This document shows positions 30,770-59,440 of a stretch of 59,440 nucleotides of DNA, in pieces (the first letter of the stretch is position 1; every line of letters begins with the position of its first letter). Under the pieces are notes generated by a model. That model was not told the DNA's origin. It searched no databases and saw only the letters and a program-made list of their open reading frames with translations. A program made the translations under genes and the position numbers. This DNA is from an uncultured Candidatus Saccharibacteria bacterium (GTDB taxonomy: Bacteria; Patescibacteriota; Minisyncoccia; Phycocordibacterales; Phycocordibacteraceae), in assembly GCA_964499455.1 (NCBI GenBank), contig CAZCLC010000001.1, positions 1-59,440 of the forward strand. The letters are read 5' to 3'.

Positions 30770-30841
30770 GGCCCTATCGTCTAATGGCTAGGACATCACC
30801 CTCTCACGGTGGTAATCGGGGTTCGACTCCCCGTAGGGTCA
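30770..30841 (+). tRNA. tRNA-Glu (anticodon CTC)
   Basis: Full cloverleaf by hand: acceptor GGCCCTA/TAGGGTC, D-stem GTCT/GGAC, anticodon stem TCACC/GGTGG with loop CTCTCAC, 4-nt variable loop, T-arm CGGGG-TTCGACT-CCCCG, discriminator A. Confidence 0.92.
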
Positions 30842-31020
30842 CAAATTGAAACTTCTTGCGAAGTTAGCACAAAAGAGTGGCGCGCCGCAGGCGCGCCACA
30901 TCGCACTCGCTCCACTCGTGCGACCGACCGACAAAATAATTTCCTCTCAATTTTTGTCCGGCTCCTCCCCAAACCTCTCCGCCGAAAGGCGAAAAGAAGA
31001 AAGGAAGTTTTTTGTTTGCT
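30842..31020. repeat. GC-rich hairpin-dense repeat, copy A (inverted relative to copies C and B)
   Basis: Starts immediately after tRNA-Glu. Has a 10-bp perfect GC hairpin GTGGCGCGCC-GCA-GGCGCGCCAC at 30877-30899. The reverse complement of 30939-30986 matches 59094-59142 (TTCGG.GGAG.GGT.TGGGGAGGAGCCG.ACAAAAA.TTGA.AGGAAAT). Confidence 0.75.
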
Positions 31021-31108
31021 CACACGAGCTTATATTCCAGTCTAATAAATTAGAAAAATCAGCTACTTCTTAATGGCTATACAAAAATAAATTTGATACA
31101 ATACGGCT

Positions 31109-31555
31109 ATGAAGCAGAAAACGATCCTCGGAATCATCGGAGTAGTAGTGATCGGCGCACTCATTGTTATCGTTTATTTCTTCTCACAAAAGACCTATCT
31201 AATCGATCAGCATGCGGCTGCCATTCTCGCGTGTTATACAGGAGACTCAAGCGGCACCACAGACCAACCGATACCGAATAATTCTGTCCAATATGTGAAA
31301 GAAACGTCGCGCCTCTTCATCAACATGCCAAAGGATTTGTATCCCCGGGATCTCCAATATTCCTGGACTACTGTTGCGGGCAACGCGTCGGCTGGATCGG
31401 TCGGCGGCGGTTTTGGCGAAGCTGAAGGCGCTGCGCCTGGCTGCTGGTCGTCGTATATGGACTTCGAGGGGAGCGGTGAAGTCGATCTGCGAGTGAAGAG
31501 CGTCGTCGAGGGCGCGCCAGATTACTTCGTGCGCTTCATTGTTTCTTCGGTGTGA
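31109..31555 (+). CDS. Membrane-anchored hypothetical protein with strikingly high GC
   Basis: 148 aa with an N-terminal TM anchor (ILGIIGVVVIGALIVIVYFF). The 3' half is visibly around 55-60% GC in a ~33% GC genome. The antisense ORF 31247-31567 was rejected. Confidence 0.6.
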   Translation: MKQKTILGIIGVVVIGALIVIVYFFSQKTYLIDQHAAAILACYTGDSSGTTDQPIPNNSVQYVKETSRLFINMPKDLYPRDLQYSWTTVAGNASAGSVGGGFGEAEGAAPGCWSSYMDFEGSGEVDLRVKSVVEGAPDYFVRFIVSSV

Positions 31556-31786
31556 TGATTTCCGCATATAAACTGAAATATTTGACTTAGGAATAAACTA
31601 AATCGCGCCGAAGGCACGGAAGAACAGCGTGCCTTCTATGCATTATAAGTTAATCAATTGTTTTACAATTAGTAATAAGTTCGGGCAAGGTTTGTGATTT
31701 AATTACAAATCTAAACTTTCTATCATAGTATGAACATACTGTATAATATATGTTTATATAGTATTAATTAATAATTAAAATTAATT

Positions 31787-32371
31787 ATGTCTGCCAAAGT
31801 AATAATATTTGATTTTTTTGGTGTAATTTGTTCCGAAGTAGCTCCTTTTTGGTTTCAAAAATACATCTCTAAAAAAGAAGTGCAGAAATATAAAAAATTC
31901 TATTTTGAGCCAGCTGATTCTGTAGAAATTTCAGATGATAAATTATTAGAAAATCTAAGTAGATTTTCTGATGAGACCGCAAAAAAAGTAAAAGGAGAAT
32001 TATATAATTTAGTAAAAATAAATTATGATGTTGTTAAAATTATAAAAAACCTTAAACAAAATCATAAAATTGGCATATGTTCTAATAGTAATAGTAAATT
32101 TTTATATACAATTCTACAAGCCAATGAATTAATCAATTTATTTGATTCTATTATTATTTCAAGTGAATATGGAGTTACAAAACCAGATGTTAGAATTTAT
32201 AAATTTGCTTTAGAACAACTTTCTGCCAGTCCGCAGGAGACAATATTTATTGATGATAATCCTAAAAATATACAAGGTGCAGAACAAGTTGGTATAAAAA
32301 GTATTCTCTTTACTAATCCGAAAGAATTAGTTATTGAGTTGTTAAAATCTACTGACATAATAACAAATTAG
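31787..32371 (+). CDS. HAD-superfamily hydrolase
   Basis: Motif I region VIIFDFFGVI (second Asp replaced), motif II CSNS and motif IV IFIDDNPKNIQGA. Very low GC. Confidence 0.7.
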   Translation: MSAKVIIFDFFGVICSEVAPFWFQKYISKKEVQKYKKFYFEPADSVEISDDKLLENLSRFSDETAKKVKGELYNLVKINYDVVKIIKNLKQNHKIGICSNSNSKFLYTILQANELINLFDSIIISSEYGVTKPDVRIYKFALEQLSASPQETIFIDDNPKNIQGAEQVGIKSILFTNPKELVIELLKSTDIITN

Positions 32372-32432
32372 ATTGCAGTGTAATGTAAAATTAAATAGTT
32401 ATATACTGTATTATATAAGTATCATATAAAAT

Positions 32433-32788
32433 ATGAATATATTTGAAAAAATTATAAAAGATAGAGAAATTAGAAAAATAAGTCCTAGATTTAAAGCTGA
32501 AATGTATCGTGAAAAAAAGAATTTAAAGATATTCTTGAGAAACTTGGTAAAAAAACTAATGATACTGGATACGATATTTTGTTAAAAATTCCAATGAAAA
32601 TTTTTTCTAATAACTTGAAAACCGTATATGATGAAAAATATGGGAACAAAGCTTATTTGAAGGATTCTTTTAAATTATTTTTTGGCAAAAACGGAGCTTT
32701 ACATAATACAACAAAAATTATAGCTATTGTTACTCATCTTTCTGGGAAAATTGTTAAAATAGGTTTAAGAAAATTATTTGCAATTTAA
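32433..32788 (+). CDS. Small hypothetical protein that needs a -1 frameshift (or a 1-nt correction) at an A7 run to be read as one ~118-aa product
   Basis: Frame A (ATG 32433) runs to TAA 32583-32585. The -1 frame opens just upstream of the A7 run (32512-32518) and continues sensibly (EFKDILEKLGKKTNDTGYDILLKIPMKIF...) to 32788. The zero-frame heptamer A_AAA_AAG is at 32513-32519. Confidence 0.45.
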
Positions 32789-32790
32789 CT

Positions 32791-33066
32791 ATGGTAGTAG
32801 AAAAAGAAATACAAGAAATAATAGATAATTTTATTGAGGAGCTTGAGGGAAAGCAAAATGCTATTATTGATTTTAATAGAAAAGTTCAAGAAATAATTTA
32901 TAAATCAAAACAAGCATTTAATTCAGAAACTGATAAATTGAATGAACATTTTCTTAAGGCAGAAATTTCTGAACAAGAATATCGTCAGAGATTTTTAAAA
33001 TTTAAAGAACAAATTATTAAAGAAACTAAGCAAAAATTAGATATTTTAATACAAAGTTTAAAATAA
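32791..33066 (+). CDS. Coiled-coil hypothetical protein (91 aa)
   Basis: Charged heptad-like sequence. Starts 3 nt after the previous stop. No recognisable domain. Confidence 0.5.
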   Translation: MVVEKEIQEIIDNFIEELEGKQNAIIDFNRKVQEIIYKSKQAFNSETDKLNEHFLKAEISEQEYRQRFLKFKEQIIKETKQKLDILIQSLK

Positions 33067-33361
33067 TAATCTATATAAATTCTGAAAAACAAAGAAAGAT
33101 TAATTTGAGTTATTAAATGTTTTGATAAAGCATATAATTATTTTGTATATTAGTTAATTAAAGTACAAACATTAAATATAATAAATTCTACAAATAATTA
33201 AATTCAGTGAAAACTCCACTGCTTGATATAGTTGACAAAATATATAAAATGTAGTAGCTTATACATCATAAGTTACATCTCATGATTTCCATGTATATGT
33301 TTTGGAATTTAAGAGATCTTAGTCGGCTTATCTCTTAATCTTAAAGGCTAAAACAAAATAT

Positions 33362-54757: not shown

Positions 54758-55720
54758 TTATGAATACATACCAATTGTACGTTTGACATATTCCATTTTT
54801 TTATCAGTTATAGCAATTGCCTCTCGCTTCCCTTTTGCAAGCACATCATCAACAATATCAGTATCTTTTTTTAAAGTTTCATATCGTGTACGAATGGTGG
54901 CAAAATATGTATTAAGGTCTTCTAAAAGTATTTCTTTGAGTATCTTATATTTTCCTTTATTTTTTTCATAAATTAGAGAAAGTTCGTTCTCATTTCGCAC
55001 TAATTTATGAATCGCATAAACATTTTCTGGCCTATCACCAGCTGAATCTGTAACAATGCTCATAACACGTTTGGTAAGCTCGTTTTGAGAAGCAAACAGA
55101 GGAATTACATTATCATAACTTTTACTCATTTTTTTACCGTCTGTACCTGAGACCACTGCAACGTCTGGAGTAATATATGCTTCAGGTAATACAAATATAT
55201 CATCTTGAAAAATATGATTAAATTTTCGTGCTGTATCACGAGCAATTTCAATATGCTGTTTCTGGTCTTGTCCAACTGGCACGATAGTCGTATCGTAAAG
55301 TAAAATATCTGCTGCCATTAACATCGGATAGTTAAAGACACCAACAGAGATTTCTTTGTTTTTTTCTTGTGCATCTTTAAATGCGTGCGCACGCATTAGG
55401 TACGGTATAGTTGTAATAGTATCGAAAATCCATGCAAGTTCAGTATGTGCTGGTACATCTGATTGTTTAAAAATAACTACTTCTTCTGGATCAAGTCCGA
55501 TTGCAAGATAGCTTATAACAAGTTCACGTGTACGTACACGCATTTCTTCAGCGTCTTGTACAGTATTAAGTGCGTGATAATCTGCAACCATAATAAAGCA
55601 ACGATACTTTCCACTTTTAAAAAGTTCCATTTGTTGACGCATTGCACCAAAATAATTTCCAATGTGTAACTCACCGGTCGGTTTTATACCGGAAAAGAGT
55701 ATTGATTTTGAATCAGTCAT
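54758..55720 (-). CDS. trpS: Tryptophanyl-tRNA synthetase
   Basis: SGIKPTGELHIGNYFGA (HIGH), VPVGQDQKQH and KMSKS. Confidence 0.95.
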   Translation of the reverse strand: MTDSKSILFSGIKPTGELHIGNYFGAMRQQMELFKSGKYRCFIMVADYHALNTVQDAEEMRVRTRELVISYLAIGLDPEEVVIFKQSDVPAHTELAWIFDTITTIPYLMRAHAFKDAQEKNKEISVGVFNYPMLMAADILLYDTTIVPVGQDQKQHIEIARDTARKFNHIFQDDIFVLPEAYITPDVAVVSGTDGKKMSKSYDNVIPLFASQNELTKRVMSIVTDSAGDRPENVYAIHKLVRNENELSLIYEKNKGKYKILKEILLEDLNTYFATIRTRYETLKKDTDIVDDVLAKGKREAIAITDKKMEYVKRTIGMYS

Positions 55721-55859
55721 AAATATTACAATACCATATTATTATGTACTACTCATCAATATAATTCAAAACTTAATATGCACGCATTTAAATAATTTAC
55801 TGTTGATGCCTATATCATATATTATGTTTATTACATGTGTGCGCAAGCGTTGCTTCATA

Positions 55860-56125
55860 ATGTTTAGTATATGCGATGTTTTGCGGAACGGAGTGGAGCA
55901 AAATATGGGAGAGCGAAGTGCAACGAGTGAACCGCATATACTGTGTTAGGCGAGCCGAACGGAGCGATAGCGGAGTGAGAGTGCAACGTGCCTTTAGTGT
56001 ACATTTTTTTATCTTTTTCTTCCATAATTGTTTCCCGCGTAGCTTTTATATTAAATGCAAAACAAAATTTTTCTGTTTTGGGCGAAGGGCAGAGGGGATT
56101 AAGGGGTGAATGCCCGTAGCCCAAA
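55860..56125. repeat. GC-rich repeat, copy D: decayed CTAAA/TTTAG hairpin unit plus the left arm of the cassette-bracketing inverted repeat (56001-56104)
   Basis: GGAGCGATAGCGGAGTGAG at 55961-55979 recurs at 57770-57784 and 58085-58103. 56001-56104 aligns by eye to the reverse complement of 57792-57888. Confidence 0.7.
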
Positions 56126-56130
56126 ACTCA

Positions 56131-56805
56131 TTATTCTTCCCAGTCTCTTTTTGTTATTTGATCTTTTGCGCCGTCAGGCAACTCCTCATAAAATCCTTCA
56201 ATTTCTTTTGGCTCCGAAATCATTTTTTCTGCAATAAAGTTTATTAATTCGAAAAGTTTCAAAACTAATTCCGGTTTTTCCTCAATATTAATTTCACCCG
56301 GATGTACAGCATTATTTCCAGTGATGCGTAGAATATCTAAAGATTTTTGAATTTGAGAATTTAATCCTTGTTTAACAAGGTTTCCAATATCCATATTTAT
56401 ATTTTCTCCTTTTTCTCCGAGCTGCTTACAAAGTTTTTGTAATGCAAGTCTTAGTAGGGCTGCTGATGATCTTACGGAATCGTTAAAAATAATTGCGGCT
56501 TCCAAATAATCTTTTTTAATATCTTCAGATAAATCATCATTTGGCAAATCAACAATCATTTTCTTTGGATAAACAATTTCACCATTTAACCAAATTATTT
56601 TCTGACCACAATGTTCGCACTTAGAAATAGTCCAATCTTTACTTAGTGTTTCGTTGAAATCAGATGTTCCTGTTATTGAATTAGATCCACTCCAGGCATG
56701 TTGCGCAATAATATGTGCCCAAAATTGTTTTGCATAAACGCCACAATGCGGACAATGAAATTGTCCTGTTGCATGTTCTGGTGGATAGTACTTTTCTTTT
56801 TTCAT
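56131..56805 (-). CDS. Zn-ribbon + DUF4145 protein (second gene of the Mrr cassette)
   Basis: The N-terminus has four Cys (CPHC ... CEHC). The C-terminal helical domain carries the DUF4145 pattern (SSAALLRLALQKLCKQLG...LDILRITGNNAVHPG). Confidence 0.8.
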   Translation of the reverse strand: MKKEKYYPPEHATGQFHCPHCGVYAKQFWAHIIAQHAWSGSNSITGTSDFNETLSKDWTISKCEHCGQKIIWLNGEIVYPKKMIVDLPNDDLSEDIKKDYLEAAIIFNDSVRSSAALLRLALQKLCKQLGEKGENINMDIGNLVKQGLNSQIQKSLDILRITGNNAVHPGEINIEEKPELVLKLFELINFIAEKMISEPKEIEGFYEELPDGAKDQITKRDWEE

Positions 56806-56817
56806 AATTGTAATAAA

Positions 56818-57708
56818 TTAGTTTTCTTCAAAAAAATCTTCATCAACTTCTTTTACTTCATATATATTGCGGACTTGCACACCAACACCATATTGATACA
56901 TTAAATCTACAAGTTTGTTACCATCAATAAGAATTATCGTATGATGTGCTTCATATGCCTTTTTAATAGCTGAATCATCAAAGTTTGAAGTAGTAACAAA
57001 AACTCCTTTGTTTGTATCTCCACTCATTGCCCCAATAAAATTACGAATTTCTTTTTCGCGAACTTTATTTTCGTTATAACGTTTTGCTTGAATATAAATT
57101 TTTTCAAGTCCAAGCTGATCTTCATTTATAACTCCATCAATACCACCATCACCTGATTTTGAAGTTTCAATAAAATCACCATATCCCATTTTTTTGAGTA
57201 AGATTAAAATGACTTTTTCAAAATAGTACGGATCAATATTTCTCAATTTTTCTAAAAGGTCACTTTTAACTTGAGAATCAATCGCTGAAAAACCAGAATC
57301 AATCAAATCTTGTGGAGATGCATTTTCAACATTAATTTCATCATTTTTAGATTCCTTTTCTGCCTTTTTAGCTTCACGATGAGCCAAAAAAACAGAATCA
57401 TTCTTTAACTCTTGTAATGTCAATGTTCCTTTTTGCAAAGCAGTCTTGCCTTTTTCTGTAATTTGTACCATTCCTCTTTCTGGGTAATCTAAAAATTTTC
57501 CTTGCTTCAAATAAGATTTACCCCACCCTATACGATCAAGTAATACATTGGCACCGGTGGTTGTTTTTTTATTTAATAGTTCTTCAGGTAAATCTGAATA
57601 GTATTTATTACGTACGCGCTTACGTAATTCATTGTAATGTAGTATTTCTCCATTACTTAATACTTCTAGAATTGGTATAAATGTTTCGTGATATTTAGGT
57701 AATTCCAT
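56818..57708 (-). CDS. mrr: Mrr-type restriction endonuclease (Mrr_N winged helix + Mrr_cat PD-(D/E)xK)
   Basis: N-terminus MELPKYHETFIPILEVLSNGE..HYNELRKRV (Mrr_N). C-terminus FEKVILILLKKMGYG...SGDGGIDGVI...IYIQAKRY...I.NF.GAM......GVFVTTS.F (Mrr catalytic core). Confidence 0.88.
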   Translation of the reverse strand: MELPKYHETFIPILEVLSNGEILHYNELRKRVRNKYYSDLPEELLNKKTTTGANVLLDRIGWGKSYLKQGKFLDYPERGMVQITEKGKTALQKGTLTLQELKNDSVFLAHREAKKAEKESKNDEINVENASPQDLIDSGFSAIDSQVKSDLLEKLRNIDPYYFEKVILILLKKMGYGDFIETSKSGDGGIDGVINEDQLGLEKIYIQAKRYNENKVREKEIRNFIGAMSGDTNKGVFVTTSNFDDSAIKKAYEAHHTIILIDGNKLVDLMYQYGVGVQVRNIYEVKEVDEDFFEEN

Positions 57709-57724
57709 AGTTGTATTAATTATT

Positions 57725-58135
57725 TTGTGAAAATTATATTCCTTTCTCCCTTATAAATAAATCGTTTTCGGAGCGATAGCGGAGAAAACAACCTTATATC
57801 CCCTCTAAAAAGAAAAAAATTGTTTTGCTTCCTTATTCTTAAAAGCGAAGCGGGAAACCTCCTTATTATCAAAAAAGATAAAAAATGTATGCCGCCTAAT
57901 GCGCCGCGGATGATGCGACCGTTTGCGAGTATAATTATTGTAGCATAGCTACAATAATTTATGAGCAAATGTCGCATATCCCGCTGTTGTCCGAAGTCCG
58001 CGAAGCGAAGCGAAGCGAGCGGGATGAGGACGGCAGAGGGATTCATCCGCGGCGCATTGTCCTAAATCCGAGAGTGAGACGAATGGAGCGACAGCGGAGT
58101 GAGCTGAGCGAGCGGATTTAGGACAACTGGTTTTT
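57725..58135. repeat. GC-rich repeat, copy E: right arm of the inverted repeat (57792-57888) plus a multi-stem element (57898-58135)
   Basis: A 16-bp perfect closing stem AATGCGCCGCGGATGA (57898-57913) / TCATCCGCGGCGCATT (58043-58058) encloses a 12-bp hairpin (57933-57959) and an ATCCCGC/GCGGGAT hairpin carrying (CGAAG)x3. Then comes a 14-bp hairpin 58057-58070/58113-58126 and T5 (58131-58135). Confidence 0.75.
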
Positions 58136-58203
58136 ATCCATACTTTGTGATTGAATTATAGCAAGAAGTTTTATGTTATACAAACTTTTATTATTCTTGA
58201 ACT

Positions 58204-59016
58204 ATGGGCAATATTTTAGACAAAACCGAACGAGTATTACGATTACGCAACTACTCTCCCAAAACTCGTAAAGCATACTTGTTCTATATAAGACAGTATA
58301 TCAGTTTTTCTAAAAAAGCTGGAATCAAAAATAAACAAAAAGTAGTTGAGGATTTTTTACTTGATAAACATAACCGCAAACAATCTCCGCAAACAATCAA
58401 TCTTGCACTTAATGCTGTAAAGTTTTTGTATAGAGAAGTTTTGAAAAATTCGCAAAAAATTGATTTAAAATTTGCAAAAAGAAGTAAGAAGTTGCCAGTT
58501 GTACTTTCACATCGTGAGATTGAGAAAATTATCCATGCAACTGATAATGCAAAATATAAACTTATGATTTCACTTGGTTATGCTTGTGGTCTTAGAGTTA
58601 GCGAGGTTATTAGTCTGCATGTAGCTGATTTGGATATTGATGAGCTTGTTGTTCATATCAAAAGAGCAAAAGGTAAGAAAGACAGAATCAGTGTTCTACC
58701 TGGAAAGCTGCAGGATGATTTACGGAATATAATTGCTGATAGAAATGCGAAAGATTATATTTTTGATTCTAATCGTGGCGGAAAACTTACAACAACATCT
58801 TTGCAAAAAATGTTTCGCAAGAGTTTAGCAAAAACAACAATCAAAAAGCCAGTAACTTTCCACTCCCTGCGACATTCTTTTGCAACACACTTGTTAGAAA
58901 ACGGAACGGATGTGCGTTATGTACAGGAATTGCTTGGACACTCTAATATTCGCACTACGCAAATCTATACACAAGTTACAAACCCGAAGTTAAAGAATAT
59001 TAAGAGTCCACTGTAA
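58204..59016 (+). CDS. Tyrosine recombinase (XerC/D-like with SAM-like N-domain; lacks the IntI-specific insertion)
   Basis: N-terminus LRNYSPKTRKAYLFYIRQYISF. Catalytic residues fit R (GLRVSE), K (KGKKDR), H-x-x-R (HSLRHSFATH), H (LLGHS) and Y (TQIYTQV). Only 270 aa. Confidence 0.9.
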   Translation: MGNILDKTERVLRLRNYSPKTRKAYLFYIRQYISFSKKAGIKNKQKVVEDFLLDKHNRKQSPQTINLALNAVKFLYREVLKNSQKIDLKFAKRSKKLPVVLSHREIEKIIHATDNAKYKLMISLGYACGLRVSEVISLHVADLDIDELVVHIKRAKGKKDRISVLPGKLQDDLRNIIADRNAKDYIFDSNRGGKLTTTSLQKMFRKSLAKTTIKKPVTFHSLRHSFATHLLENGTDVRYVQELLGHSNIRTTQIYTQVTNPKLKNIKSPL

Positions 59017-59019
59017 CTA

Positions 59020-59440
59020 TTATAGCGAACCCGACCGAGGGTCTGCCCCAACGAAGTGAGGGTGCAAAATCATTTCCTTACCTCTCTTTCTTTTTCGGTG
59101 GAGGGGTCTGGGGAGGAGCCGAACAAAAAATTGAAAGGAAATGGTTTTGGTCGGGTGGCTCGCCGAGTGAAGCGGGGCGAGAGTGACGCGGTTGTATTGC
59201 GAGAGTTACCACTAAACTCTCCTATCGGAGAGTTTAGTGTAGAATTACCACACAGGATCTCGCCGTGGAGCGTGCGCCCGCAGGCGCACGCATTTAGACA
59301 GCACGCACTCCGTGCGTTCCTATTTGTTTAATGTAGTTGATTTTGAAAATAGGTTCTATTCTGGTGCCTTTATTTTACCAAATCCGAACCTATTTTCAAA
59401 ATAAATACTAACTCACGCGCGGAGCGCGTGGAAACTCCAA
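59020..59440. repeat. GC-rich hairpin-dense repeat, copy B (collinear with copy C); runs to the window edge
   Basis: Stems: CTCGCC/GGCGAG 59159-59181, 13-bp perfect 59210-59222/59227-59239, 9-bp GC 59270-59291, 59303-59317, 17-bp perfect 59340-59356/59386-59402, 59414-59430. Block 59094-59142 is shared with copies A and C. Confidence 0.75.

Follow-up and report, generated by a model that had tools for sequence, protein, structure and literature searches.

In the 59,440-nucleotide (nt) stretch of Candidatus Saccharibacteria DNA analysed here, which we refer to as the window, a gene for a tyrosine recombinase of 270 amino acids (58204..59016, + strand) is preceded by a GC-rich, multi-stem element of 227 nt (57900..58126, + strand) that contains no open reading frame (ORF). 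A preliminary description of this region had drawn attention to the element and had considered three options for its nature: a recombinase-associated structured RNA, a single-strand-folded recombination substrate (attC-like in principle) and a regulatory leader. The platform present in the window is composed of the recombinase gene, an attI-like leader, the ORF-less cassette at 57900-58126 and a defence cassette at 55861-57899, and it is bordered by housekeeping genes. Comparative evidence favours the second of these options, and we consider it quite probable that the element is a complete gene-less cassette of an integron-like gene-capture platform, operating as an attC-like folded recombination substrate.

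The stems listed in the preliminary description, together with the 12-base-pair (bp) tip, the (CGAAG)x3 repeat and a motif present three times, were all recovered at their positions, and BLAST of the region against itself returned the stems independently. All features of the element lie on the + strand. At its left end stands the box CGCCTAAT (57893..57900), the end of the neighbouring cassette 2, which constitutes a cleaved R'-type box reading ATTAGGCG on the ORF-sense strand and which aligns with the ...ATTTCnnnTAAC box that is the cassette terminus in all loci. An outer closing stem of 16 bp without mismatch pairs AATGCGCCGCGGATGA (5' arm, 57898..57913) with its perfect complement TCATCCGCGGCGCATT (3' arm, 58043..58058). 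Between the arms lie hairpin a' (57914..57977; ATGCGAC...GTCGCAT), whose AT-rich tip (57933-57959) pairs 57933-57944 with 57948-57959 over 12 bp without mismatch, and hairpin b' (57978..58042; ATCCCGCTGTTGTCC...GGACGGCAGAGGGAT), which contains (CGAAG)x3 and in which ATCCCGC...GCGGGAT encloses GCGAAGCGAAGCGAAGCGAG (58000-58019). Two right boxes are present: inner right box 1, GTTGTCCG (57986..57993), is the reverse complement of the cassette end GGACAAC, and right box 2, the R''-type ATTGTCCT (58056..58063), is the reverse complement of AGGACAAC (58120-58127). The terminal hairpin (58057..58126) pairs TTGTCCTAAATCCG (58057-58070) with CGGATTTAGGACAA (58113-58126) over 14 bp without mismatch, its 3' arm being the cassette end, and its purine-rich 42-nt loop carries GGAGCGACAGCGGAG (58085-58099). 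The crossovers fall at TAA|T (57899|57900) and CAA|C (58126|58127).

The stability on which the preliminary description had made its proposal depend is borne out, the element lying far beyond dinucleotide shuffles both as RNA (z about -10.5) and as DNA (z about -10.9). Folded as RNA, the + strand reaches -124.2 kcal/mol, a value attained by none of 200 dinucleotide shuffles, and the - strand gives z = -8.2; folded as DNA, the unit 57900-58126 reaches -67.7 on the + strand and -61.7 (z = -10.2) on the - strand. The recurrent motif, GGAGCGAYAGCGGAG, has exactly three copies in the window (55961, 57770 and 58085; expected 0.01). All three are on the + strand and are therefore direct repeats, not mutually complementary, so that the suggested complementarity between the loop and the copies at 55961 and 57770 does not hold.

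The context of the element was established by comparison with 80 related loci obtained from a one-genome-per-species scan (designated here by L numbers), nearly all of them labelled Patescibacteria/Candidate Phyla Radiation (CPR) or obviously mis-binned. The 77 nt between the element and the recombinase gene (58127..58203, + strand) form an attI-like leader with two motifs, C|TGGTTTTTATCC (58127-58139) and the near-palindrome TTTTATGTTATACAAAC (58169-58185), which keep their order, a separation of ~45 nt and a constant distance to the start codon in most of the 80 loci; their positions are -80 and -35, respectively, in the closest relatives, and nhmmer profile I matches the leader at -92..-4. 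The CTGG-TTTTT that had been read as the end of a discrete transcript is part of the leader motif TAACTGGTTTTTATCC. Since this T-run is fixed relative to the start codon whether or not a hairpin precedes it, it is not a terminator tail; in an intrinsic terminator a GC-rich hairpin with a short loop directly precedes the T-tract, whereas here the loop measures 42 nt and the T-run begins 6 nt past the stem, within conserved leader, and a scan of 57600-58300 for terminators came back empty. In the same way, a regulatory leader ending at the T-run is not supported: the T-run belongs to the attI-like leader and the element is an insertion.

That the element is an insertion follows from alignment of the region with seven relatives (alignment A1), in which the AT-rich leader of the preceding cassette, here termed Q, runs directly to ...ATTTCnnnTAAC|TGGTTTTTATCC, with the ~225 extra bases of the window located exactly at the bar. 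When the non-coding segments of the window were compared with the related loci by BLAST, only 58116/58125-58203 was conserved beside the gene; the Q part 57733-57846 directly precedes the leader in other loci, and 55856-55994 has relatives that are up to 92-98% identical and lie 0.2-4.4 kb upstream of other recombinase genes. Homology breaks sharply at (T)AAC|TGGTT, placing an attI-like site beside the recombinase gene with a divergent array, as in integrons. We also considered the element as a conserved upstream partner of the recombinase and rejected this candidate, since relatives mostly show low GC content in this upstream position and the element represents an insertion.

Many contigs of related loci start 80-300 nt upstream of the recombinase gene. 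At least six public contigs begin exactly at the (T)AAC|TGGTT box (L017, L034, L039, L061, L069 and L072), and the element is where VAOZ01099074.1 and VAOZ01221825.1, two contigs from a separate assembly of this organism, break off, with an overlap of only 24 nt (58044-58067). At the insertion point the assembly graphs evidently fork, which would be expected if cells of a population carried different first cassettes. The near-palindrome at -35, TTGTATATTATACAAAC, is present in most loci 45 nt inside the crossover point, and could be an accessory recombinase-binding site (cf. DR1/DR2 of attI1), an operator or a dif-like site.

The sites with which the element shares its boxes are organized in arrays. 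In relatives, the recombinase gene is followed outwards by the conserved leader ending ...TAAC|TGGTTTTTATCC and by co-oriented ORFs, each with a structured site of ~100 nt. A covariance model (R1) was built from 43 of these regular sites, and profiles of three elements and iterated nhmmer searches were also used. R1 identified 96 sites at E < 1e-3 in 81 sequences, without exception on the + (recombinase) strand and upstream of the gene; the 79/79 sites found with nhmmer likewise lie upstream on that strand, even though 358 kb were searched downstream versus 220 kb upstream. The sites are thus associated exclusively with this recombinase family and oriented towards it. Among loci with at least 2 kb of upstream sequence, 39/43 contain at least one site and 27 contain two to six, at a median spacing of 837 nt. 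The cassettes are co-oriented, as in integrons: within arrays 99 ORFs lie on the - strand and 14 on the + strand, against 104 and 90 downstream of the recombinase. Typically one or two ORFs separate consecutive sites, with a median of 63 nt from ORF stop to site, and their cargo is unrelated between cassettes, including radical SAM/SPASM, VIT1, transglutaminase-like and DUF4037 proteins, a methyltransferase, unknowns and defence genes.

Regular sites follow the consensus nnnTAAC-GTTTC-[10-bp stem]-hairpin a-TWTGGG-hairpin b-GAAC-[stem]-(G/T)T-GTTAnnnG, often with a 40-70-nt tail; most measure 87-125 nt and they are bounded by RYYYAAC/GTTRRRY-type boxes. The AAC/GTT pairs never vary, nine pairs of the 10-bp L stem show changes on both sides, and covariation is heavy in the long stem and in hairpin a. 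Paired cells amount to 94.4% (73.4% in shuffles) and fall to 31-49% in a control with partners slid by 1-3 columns, and double-change cells number 514 versus 159 in shuffles. Like attC sites, the regular sites are therefore imperfect palindromes of variable sequence and conserved structure. A one-sided bulge of 3-4 nt on the 5' side separates their R and L boxes (alignment A3), whereas the D-prime class to which we assign the element of the window has continuous perfect stems.

Two further properties of the sites are characteristic of integrons. The + strand of the regular sites holds G·U over A·C pairs at about 106:9 (29:9 once two conserved G·U columns are removed), an excess which argues that folding has been selected on the strand opposite the cassette ORFs, the 'bottom' strand in integron terms, and which would constitute indirect evidence of bottom-strand folding. 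Because an integron cassette has at some time existed as a circle, the inverse core site of its attC is complementary to the bases with which that cassette begins. In the present arrays, comparison of the right box with the start of its own cassette, which is the nearest boundary on the recombinase side, gives a reverse-complement match over five variable positions in 33/76 cases; the corresponding figure is 2/66 for the immediately adjacent left box and 5% for random pairs. The rule holds for both cassettes of the window, relating GTTAGGCG to CGCCTAAT in cassette 2 and GTTGTCCG/ATTGTCCT to AGGACAAC in the element. These own-start matches, together with the box-to-box homology of duplicates described below, are as expected of discrete, circularisable cassettes. 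BLAST comparison of species representatives for shared cassettes returned only the pairs L011/L047 and L014/L064, at 70-78% identity, too few to define boundaries.

The element of the window is a member of a recurrent class. D-prime units begin with TAAY| and a GC-rich arm of 10-16 nt, followed by inner hairpins (including a D core, weak in some units and clear in others, with a right box and GC-rich tail), and continue with the complementary arm, a right box [AG]TTnnnn, AAAT, a GnAGCGnAGCG loop, ATTT and the reverse complement of the box, ending in AAC|. Complete units are present in the window, L006, L011, L029, L055, L060 (two), L064 (two), L067 and L077, and partial ones at the contig starts of L007, L016, L062 and L063; the module [AG]TTnnnn-AAAT-GnAGCGnAGCG-ATTT-nnnnAAC| adjoins the leader in at least 14 loci. 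The outer arms share a mean identity of 55%, yet all nine other units preserve both their pairing and their position directly against TAAY| and the [AG]TT box. The association of TAAT with ATT and of TAAC with GTT in 10/11 units places the crossover at TAA|Y, as in integrons. In 10/10 complete units the + strand folds better, by 10-27 kcal/mol, and G·U pairs number 52 versus 11. These observations indicate a structure maintained by selection in the class; the element itself is missing from most recombinase loci.

R1 also detects an inner D core starting at the same left box in L006 (39.5 bits), L055 (39.9) and L011 (31.3). The corresponding core of the window (57894-57993) is weak, scoring 9.2 bits in a filter-free search of 511 nt (E = 0.078), and the window element was not found by sequence hidden Markov model (HMM) or default covariance-model searches for regular sites. 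This makes the remark of the preliminary description that nothing recognisable matches the element a fair one. An alignment of three D-prime units with MAFFT (A2) was uninformative because their stems share no sequence, and scans for architecture were used for this reason.

D-prime units have moved between contexts with exact boundaries. The two copies in L064 are 98% identical, with homology that starts at TAAC| and ends at CACAAC| (alignment A6), and the attI-like leader comes after one copy, a regular site after the second. The unit nearest attI in L011 equals an internal unit of L060, indels in the inner hairpins aside (A5). The unit of the window itself recurs twice in L193 (VAOY01034031.1, an array without recombinase gene), at 95-97% identity, and once in L140 (A7). 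Each L193 copy is followed by a different regular site and both end at ACAAC|; homology of the complete copy begins at TAAT|GCGCC, the second being cut by the contig end. These copies show the unit to be discrete and to have resided in three contexts or more. When metagenomes were scanned with a 17-mer taken from the element, most matches were random GC-rich sequence, the real ones being L114, L140, L191 and L193. Units 1.2-3.8 kb from the recombinase gene or inside arrays also occur, and an architecture scan without junction bias found seven units beside attI versus three internal ones, all of them upstream of recombinase genes, on the + strand and at cassette boundaries.

Two rearrangements were observed among these copies. 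The CGAAG pentamer, present three times in the window, is present twice in the L193 and L140 copies, a change of copy number within hairpin b' (A7). In L193 copy 1 (2919-2988) the 44-nt terminal loop is exactly inverted with respect to the other copy (L193 4439-4535) and to L140, and matches the reverse complement of the window sequence (58057-58126) apart from three substitutions. The inversion is precise between 14-bp inverted arms that contain recombination boxes, and could be recombinase-mediated or the product of hairpin template switching.

The recombinase matches Pfam Phage_integrase (1.5e-43) and Phage_int_SAM_4. Its top NCBIfam match is the integron integrase profile TIGR02249, at 226.7 bits (cutoff 265) and in two stretches, the first of which aligns protein positions 4-181 with positions 1-181 of the 315-position profile; archaeal XerA (NF040815) follows at 215 bits (cutoff 220). 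The top PDB match is likewise an integron integrase, VchIntIA (2a3v, 1.8e-46), with XerA (5hxy, 3.4e-38) next. The 2a3v alignment also falls into two stretches (query 9-204 with chain 10-210 and query 191-270 with chain 238-317) that overlap in the query and leave chain ~211-237 without counterpart, similarity being already weak over chain ~185-210. Because the unmatched segment is the site of the IntI-specific additional domain near patch III, the recombinase is IntI-like but lacks that domain, as both the TIGR02249 and the 2a3v alignments indicate. The motifs GLRVSE, HSLRHSF, LGHS and IYT are visible in the 2a3v alignment, and the protein thus appears to be IntI-like with the catalytic R..HxxR..H..Y residues, closeness being judged from best matches.

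Homologues of the recombinase exceed 7,500 at E <= 1e-20, and the best 120, its own cluster excluded, show 79-88% identity to the query; those with names include Kerfeldbacteria, Spechtbacterales and Vogelbacteria, and many lie on very short contigs. The exact protein was matched only in a 1.4-kb contig of the same organism. Conservation of this degree across CPR candidate phyla seems higher than might be expected of housekeeping proteins at such phylogenetic distances, and points either to a platform that has spread horizontally or to very strong constraint. In L064 (4960-5020) a tandem repeat (GAACTGAACGA x ~5) occupies the 5' end of the recombinase frame, and the gene of the window is without it. 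A recombinase family of candidate phyla has been classed among the Xer-related tyrosine recombinases (the 'Cand' subgroup; Smyshlyaev et al. 2021, PMC8138268), and this subgroup very probably contains the family analysed here.

Reading the element as a gene-less cassette suggests the following sequence of events. When the + strand, opposite to the cassette ORFs, becomes single-stranded in vivo, by exposure or extrusion, the unit would fold, and its outer 16-bp stem would join the boxes TAAT.../...ATT into a duplex-like recombinase site, as in attC. The recombinase could then exchange strands at TAA|Y with the attI-like site (crossover ...CAA|C-TGGTTTTTATCC, 58126|58127) or with another folded site, such that the unit would be excised as a small circular intermediate or inserted beside the recombinase gene, in an array of cassettes putatively transcribed away from the recombinase. 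In integrons, the insertion site is the arrival point of new cassettes. Because the unit contains little besides a site and stable hairpins, prefers the insertion point and is multi-copy (L064, L193 and L060), it is most likely a minimal selfish non-coding passenger, an 'attC-only' cassette. A side effect on the expression of the cassettes behind it is possible.

Several points weigh against this interpretation. The VchIntIA extra domain reads the extrahelical bases of attC; in a recombinase without it, canonical attC recognition cannot apply unchanged, and the stems of the element are perfect, without the bulged bases typical of attC. Assignment of the window element to the D-prime class rests on architecture, position and boundaries rather than on score, because R1 gives it only 9.2 bits. 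Its excision and integration are deduced from the comparison of sequences, the G·U bias would fit a + strand RNA equally well, and the enrichment of units at the first position stems from a search designed around the junction, the unbiased 7 versus 3 being small numbers. The IntI-specific domain, moreover, has been reported as necessary for IntI activity, as Messier & Roy (2001) are cited in PMC9668308. Since the system lacks the IntI domain and displays most of the other integron features tested, we describe it as an integron-like variant and not as a canonical integron.

One alternative is a module of the Xer/dif type, comparable to integrative mobile elements exploiting Xer (IMEX) or to Acinetobacter pdif modules, in which a dimer-resolving Xer of the CPR 'Cand' subgroup acts on double-stranded sites and the hairpins are incidental. 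The Xer-related classification of the recombinases of candidate phyla (PMC8138268), a XerA score that almost equals the IntI score in a protein without the IntI domain, and the near-palindrome of the conserved leader at -35 all speak for it. We nevertheless judge it improbable: the boxes stand at the base of a long covarying stem that double-stranded recognition would not need, integron hallmarks are present in the strand bias of G·T pairs and in the agreement of boxes with their own cassette, the sites occur in one orientation and on one side of the gene only, and they are direct, whereas pdif modules have inverted site pairs. An Xer/dif system has one double-stranded dif of ~28 nt per replicon, with two inverted arms around a 6-8-nt spacer and a position near the terminus; the near-palindrome at -35 is the sequence that could be compared with it in the 59-kb window.

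Another alternative returns to the first option of the preliminary description, with the element as a structured + strand non-coding RNA or 5' leader that regulates or guides the recombinase. Bridge RNAs guide IS110-family recombinases, and a comparable role would be consistent with a + strand that folds better and has many G·U pairs, with a location on the recombinase strand ~70 nt before the start of the gene, and with purine-rich loops bearing a repeated motif. It is very unlikely in view of the distribution of the element, which is missing from most recombinase loci, has copies in the L193 array without an adjacent recombinase gene and belongs to a class with other units 1.2-3.8 kb from the gene or inside arrays; its ends, in addition, coincide with recombination boxes, the motif copies are direct instead of complementary, the unit is retained in L193 with its loop inverted, and the T-run is leader. 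No promoter-like or terminator-like sites were found in the scan of 57600-58300. A known RNA family was also rejected as a candidate: Rfam assigned no family to the element, only tRNAs reaching the gathering threshold over the whole window (Rfam 15), and at E <= 10 the region 55700-59440 returned only chance matches resembling microRNAs and small nucleolar RNAs on AT-rich hairpins away from it.

That the element is a decayed or chimeric inactive remnant, be it two attC-like sites fused once their cargo was lost or a harmless palindromic element of the miniature inverted-repeat transposable element (MITE) or repetitive extragenic palindrome (REP) kind moved by an unrelated enzyme, is scarcely credible, for although its left box is TAAT instead of TAAC and its two right boxes, inner weak D core and lack of ORF are what a fusion predicts, TAAT covaries with ATT in 10/11 units, so that the change is compensated and not decay, near-identical copies exist elsewhere with exact box-to-box boundaries, the arms pair perfectly in all members even though their sequences have turned over, and there is neither a target-site duplication nor any terminal inverted repeat besides the boxes.

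With class 1 mobile integrons and the sedentary integrons of Vibrio, the platform shares a recombinase gene by the insertion site and a divergent, co-oriented cassette array; an imperfect palindrome of about 90-125 nt after each ORF, with ...TAAC/GTTA... boxes and the boundary in the distal box; an inverse core that complements its own cassette start, with the folded strand opposite to the ORFs; and diverse cargo that includes defence genes and ORF-less cassettes, under a recombinase most similar to IntI. It departs from them in a recombinase of 270 amino acids without the IntI-specific insertion around patch III; in sites that carry hairpin a, TWTGGG, hairpin b, GAAC, a 3' tail and the AGCGnAGCGGAG motif; in a one-sided 3-4-nt bulge that replaces the canonical extrahelical bases; in a conserved Q leader of ~150 nt in many cassettes; in its CPR/Patescibacteria hosts; and in D-prime units, which have two right boxes and perfect GC-rich closing stems of 12-16 bp. 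A precedent for integron architecture outside the classical hosts, likewise obtained by mining metagenome-assembled genomes, is offered by archaeal integrons (Ghaly et al. 2022, PMC9668308). The archaeal integrases are reported to keep the IntI-specific additional domain that is missing from the recombinase here, and their attCs to fold like bacterial ones (PMC9668308).

Similarity to Xer-family proteins (XerA and 'Cand'; PMC8138268) is strong and extends to size and to a two-domain architecture without arm-binding domain, but the gene analysed here is tied to arrays of folded sites and cassettes. Xer proteins, by contrast, resolve chromosome dimers at one double-stranded dif site. The CTX phage attP(+) site is a folded single-stranded DNA recombined by XerCD, enzymes of the Xer type without the IntI domain. 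Its hairpin, which mimics a duplex site, provides a precedent for the additional domain being dispensable on folded single-stranded DNA; unlike the present system, it belongs to a phage genome that integrates at dif, with no cassette arrays. Like MITE, REP and bacterial interspersed mosaic elements (BIME), the element is short, non-coding, palindromic, GC-rich relative to its host, multi-copy and dependent on an enzyme encoded elsewhere, but its ends are integron-type boxes shared with gene cassettes and its class occurs only in upstream arrays and in one orientation; it is present as a single copy in the window, and no target-site duplication was seen in A6 or A7.

As an ORF-less attC-type cassette the element belongs to a familiar type, and its integron-like context is the more surprising result. 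The operational definition of an integron rests on the unique extra domain of its integrase, which tools of the IntegronFinder type require for detection. A literature search returned no account of integrons or attC arrays in CPR bacteria, which is not proof of their absence. On the evidence of the loci compared, the integron-like system appears to be widespread in ultra-small CPR/Patescibacteria. If a domain-less, Xer-like enzyme of this kind indeed drives cassette arrays in most sampled CPR lineages, integron-like capture would be far more widespread than catalogued, the reduced genomes of CPR bacteria would own a dedicated route to defence and accessory genes, and cassette capture at folded sites would be possible without the IntI-specific domain; the origin of integrons from Xer-type recombinases would also become directly testable, with components that are short and easily synthesised. 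Gene-less cassettes of 150-230 nt would provide a natural minimal substrate holding everything needed for recognition, as well as a candidate non-coding parasite of an integron, and sites of this type would account for the frequent assembly breaks beside the recombinase gene in CPR genomes. Our judgement is evenly divided on a broader conjecture, under which genuine integron-type, folded-site cassette arrays are run by a very large and strongly conserved family of short Xer-like CPR recombinases that lack the IntI domain and have until now been taken for Xer proteins, integrons are derived from or sister to such an Xer-like system, and D-prime units are parasitic 'attC-only' cassettes, hyper-mobile, multi-copy and preferentially located at attI, that may throttle the cassettes behind them.

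The defence cassette of the window (cassette 2, 55861..57899, - strand) comprises a regular attC-like site, an inverted Q, two defence genes and a Q leader. Its site, with a D core at 55855-55952 and a tail to 55994, corresponds to a GC-rich patch at 55855-55994 and scores 69.8 bits with the covariance model (E = 2e-16); its right box, GTTAGGCG (55945-55952), and the cassette end CGCCTAAT (57893-57900) are reverse complements of each other. The defence genes, both on the - strand, encode a PD-T7-4 homologue (DUF4145; 56131-56805; PADLOC 3.4e-86, Pfam) and an Mrr type IV restriction enzyme (56818-57708; PADLOC mREase_IV 1.3e-53, Pfam). Inverted copies of Q, an AT-rich element of ~135-150 nt, flank the two genes, one at 55998-56130, located with the Q/D profiles, and the other, conserved as the Q leader, at the recombinase-proximal end of the cassette (57733-57899). 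Q contains a small hairpin, CGTTTTC-GGAGCGATAGCGGA-GAAAACA, and is found in constant orientation at the recombinase-proximal end of cassettes in many loci; in L042 the same D, inverted Q and Q modules accompany different cargo. Candidate roles for Q are those of a promoter or leader carried by the cassette, a terminator and a binding site for a protein. To the left, the platform is flanked by the gene for tryptophanyl-tRNA synthetase (TrpRS; 54758-55720, - strand), beyond which Pfam identifies further housekeeping genes: ScpA/B, FtsW, a family 4 glycosyl transferase (PF00953) and a D-Ala-D-Ala carboxypeptidase.

On the other side, the recombinase stop is followed by a second GC-rich element (59020-59330), ...AAATTTCCTTTCAATTTTT..GGCTCCTCCCC..CCTCC.CCG...AAGGAAAT..., and by further perfect palindromes at 59210-59239, 59270-59291 and 59340-59402. 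The AAATTTCCTTTCAATTTTT/GGCTCCTCCCC/AAGGAAAT element recurs, inverted and 78-88% identical, after a tRNA-Glu gene 28 kb away (30892-31006), and is also present in L005 (2903-3048), L006 (5845-5927) and L010 (~1249-1274), its orientation varying by locus. Past that tRNA-Glu gene (30770-30842), the region 30843-33200 contains a GC-rich patch, an ORF of 148 amino acids (31109-31555, 52% GC) with no Pfam match, and an AT-rich stretch at 31.6-33.2 kb (14-28% GC), and may represent an island that inserted at the tRNA gene. Location next to a tRNA gene may be typical of the platform. In VAOZ01221825.1, the 46 bases past the right end of the window (L001 1396-1430) carry inverted copies of two stretches from its left end (213-301), which lie downstream of a tRNA 3' half, and in L010 and L027 a tRNA gene is convergent with the recombinase gene.

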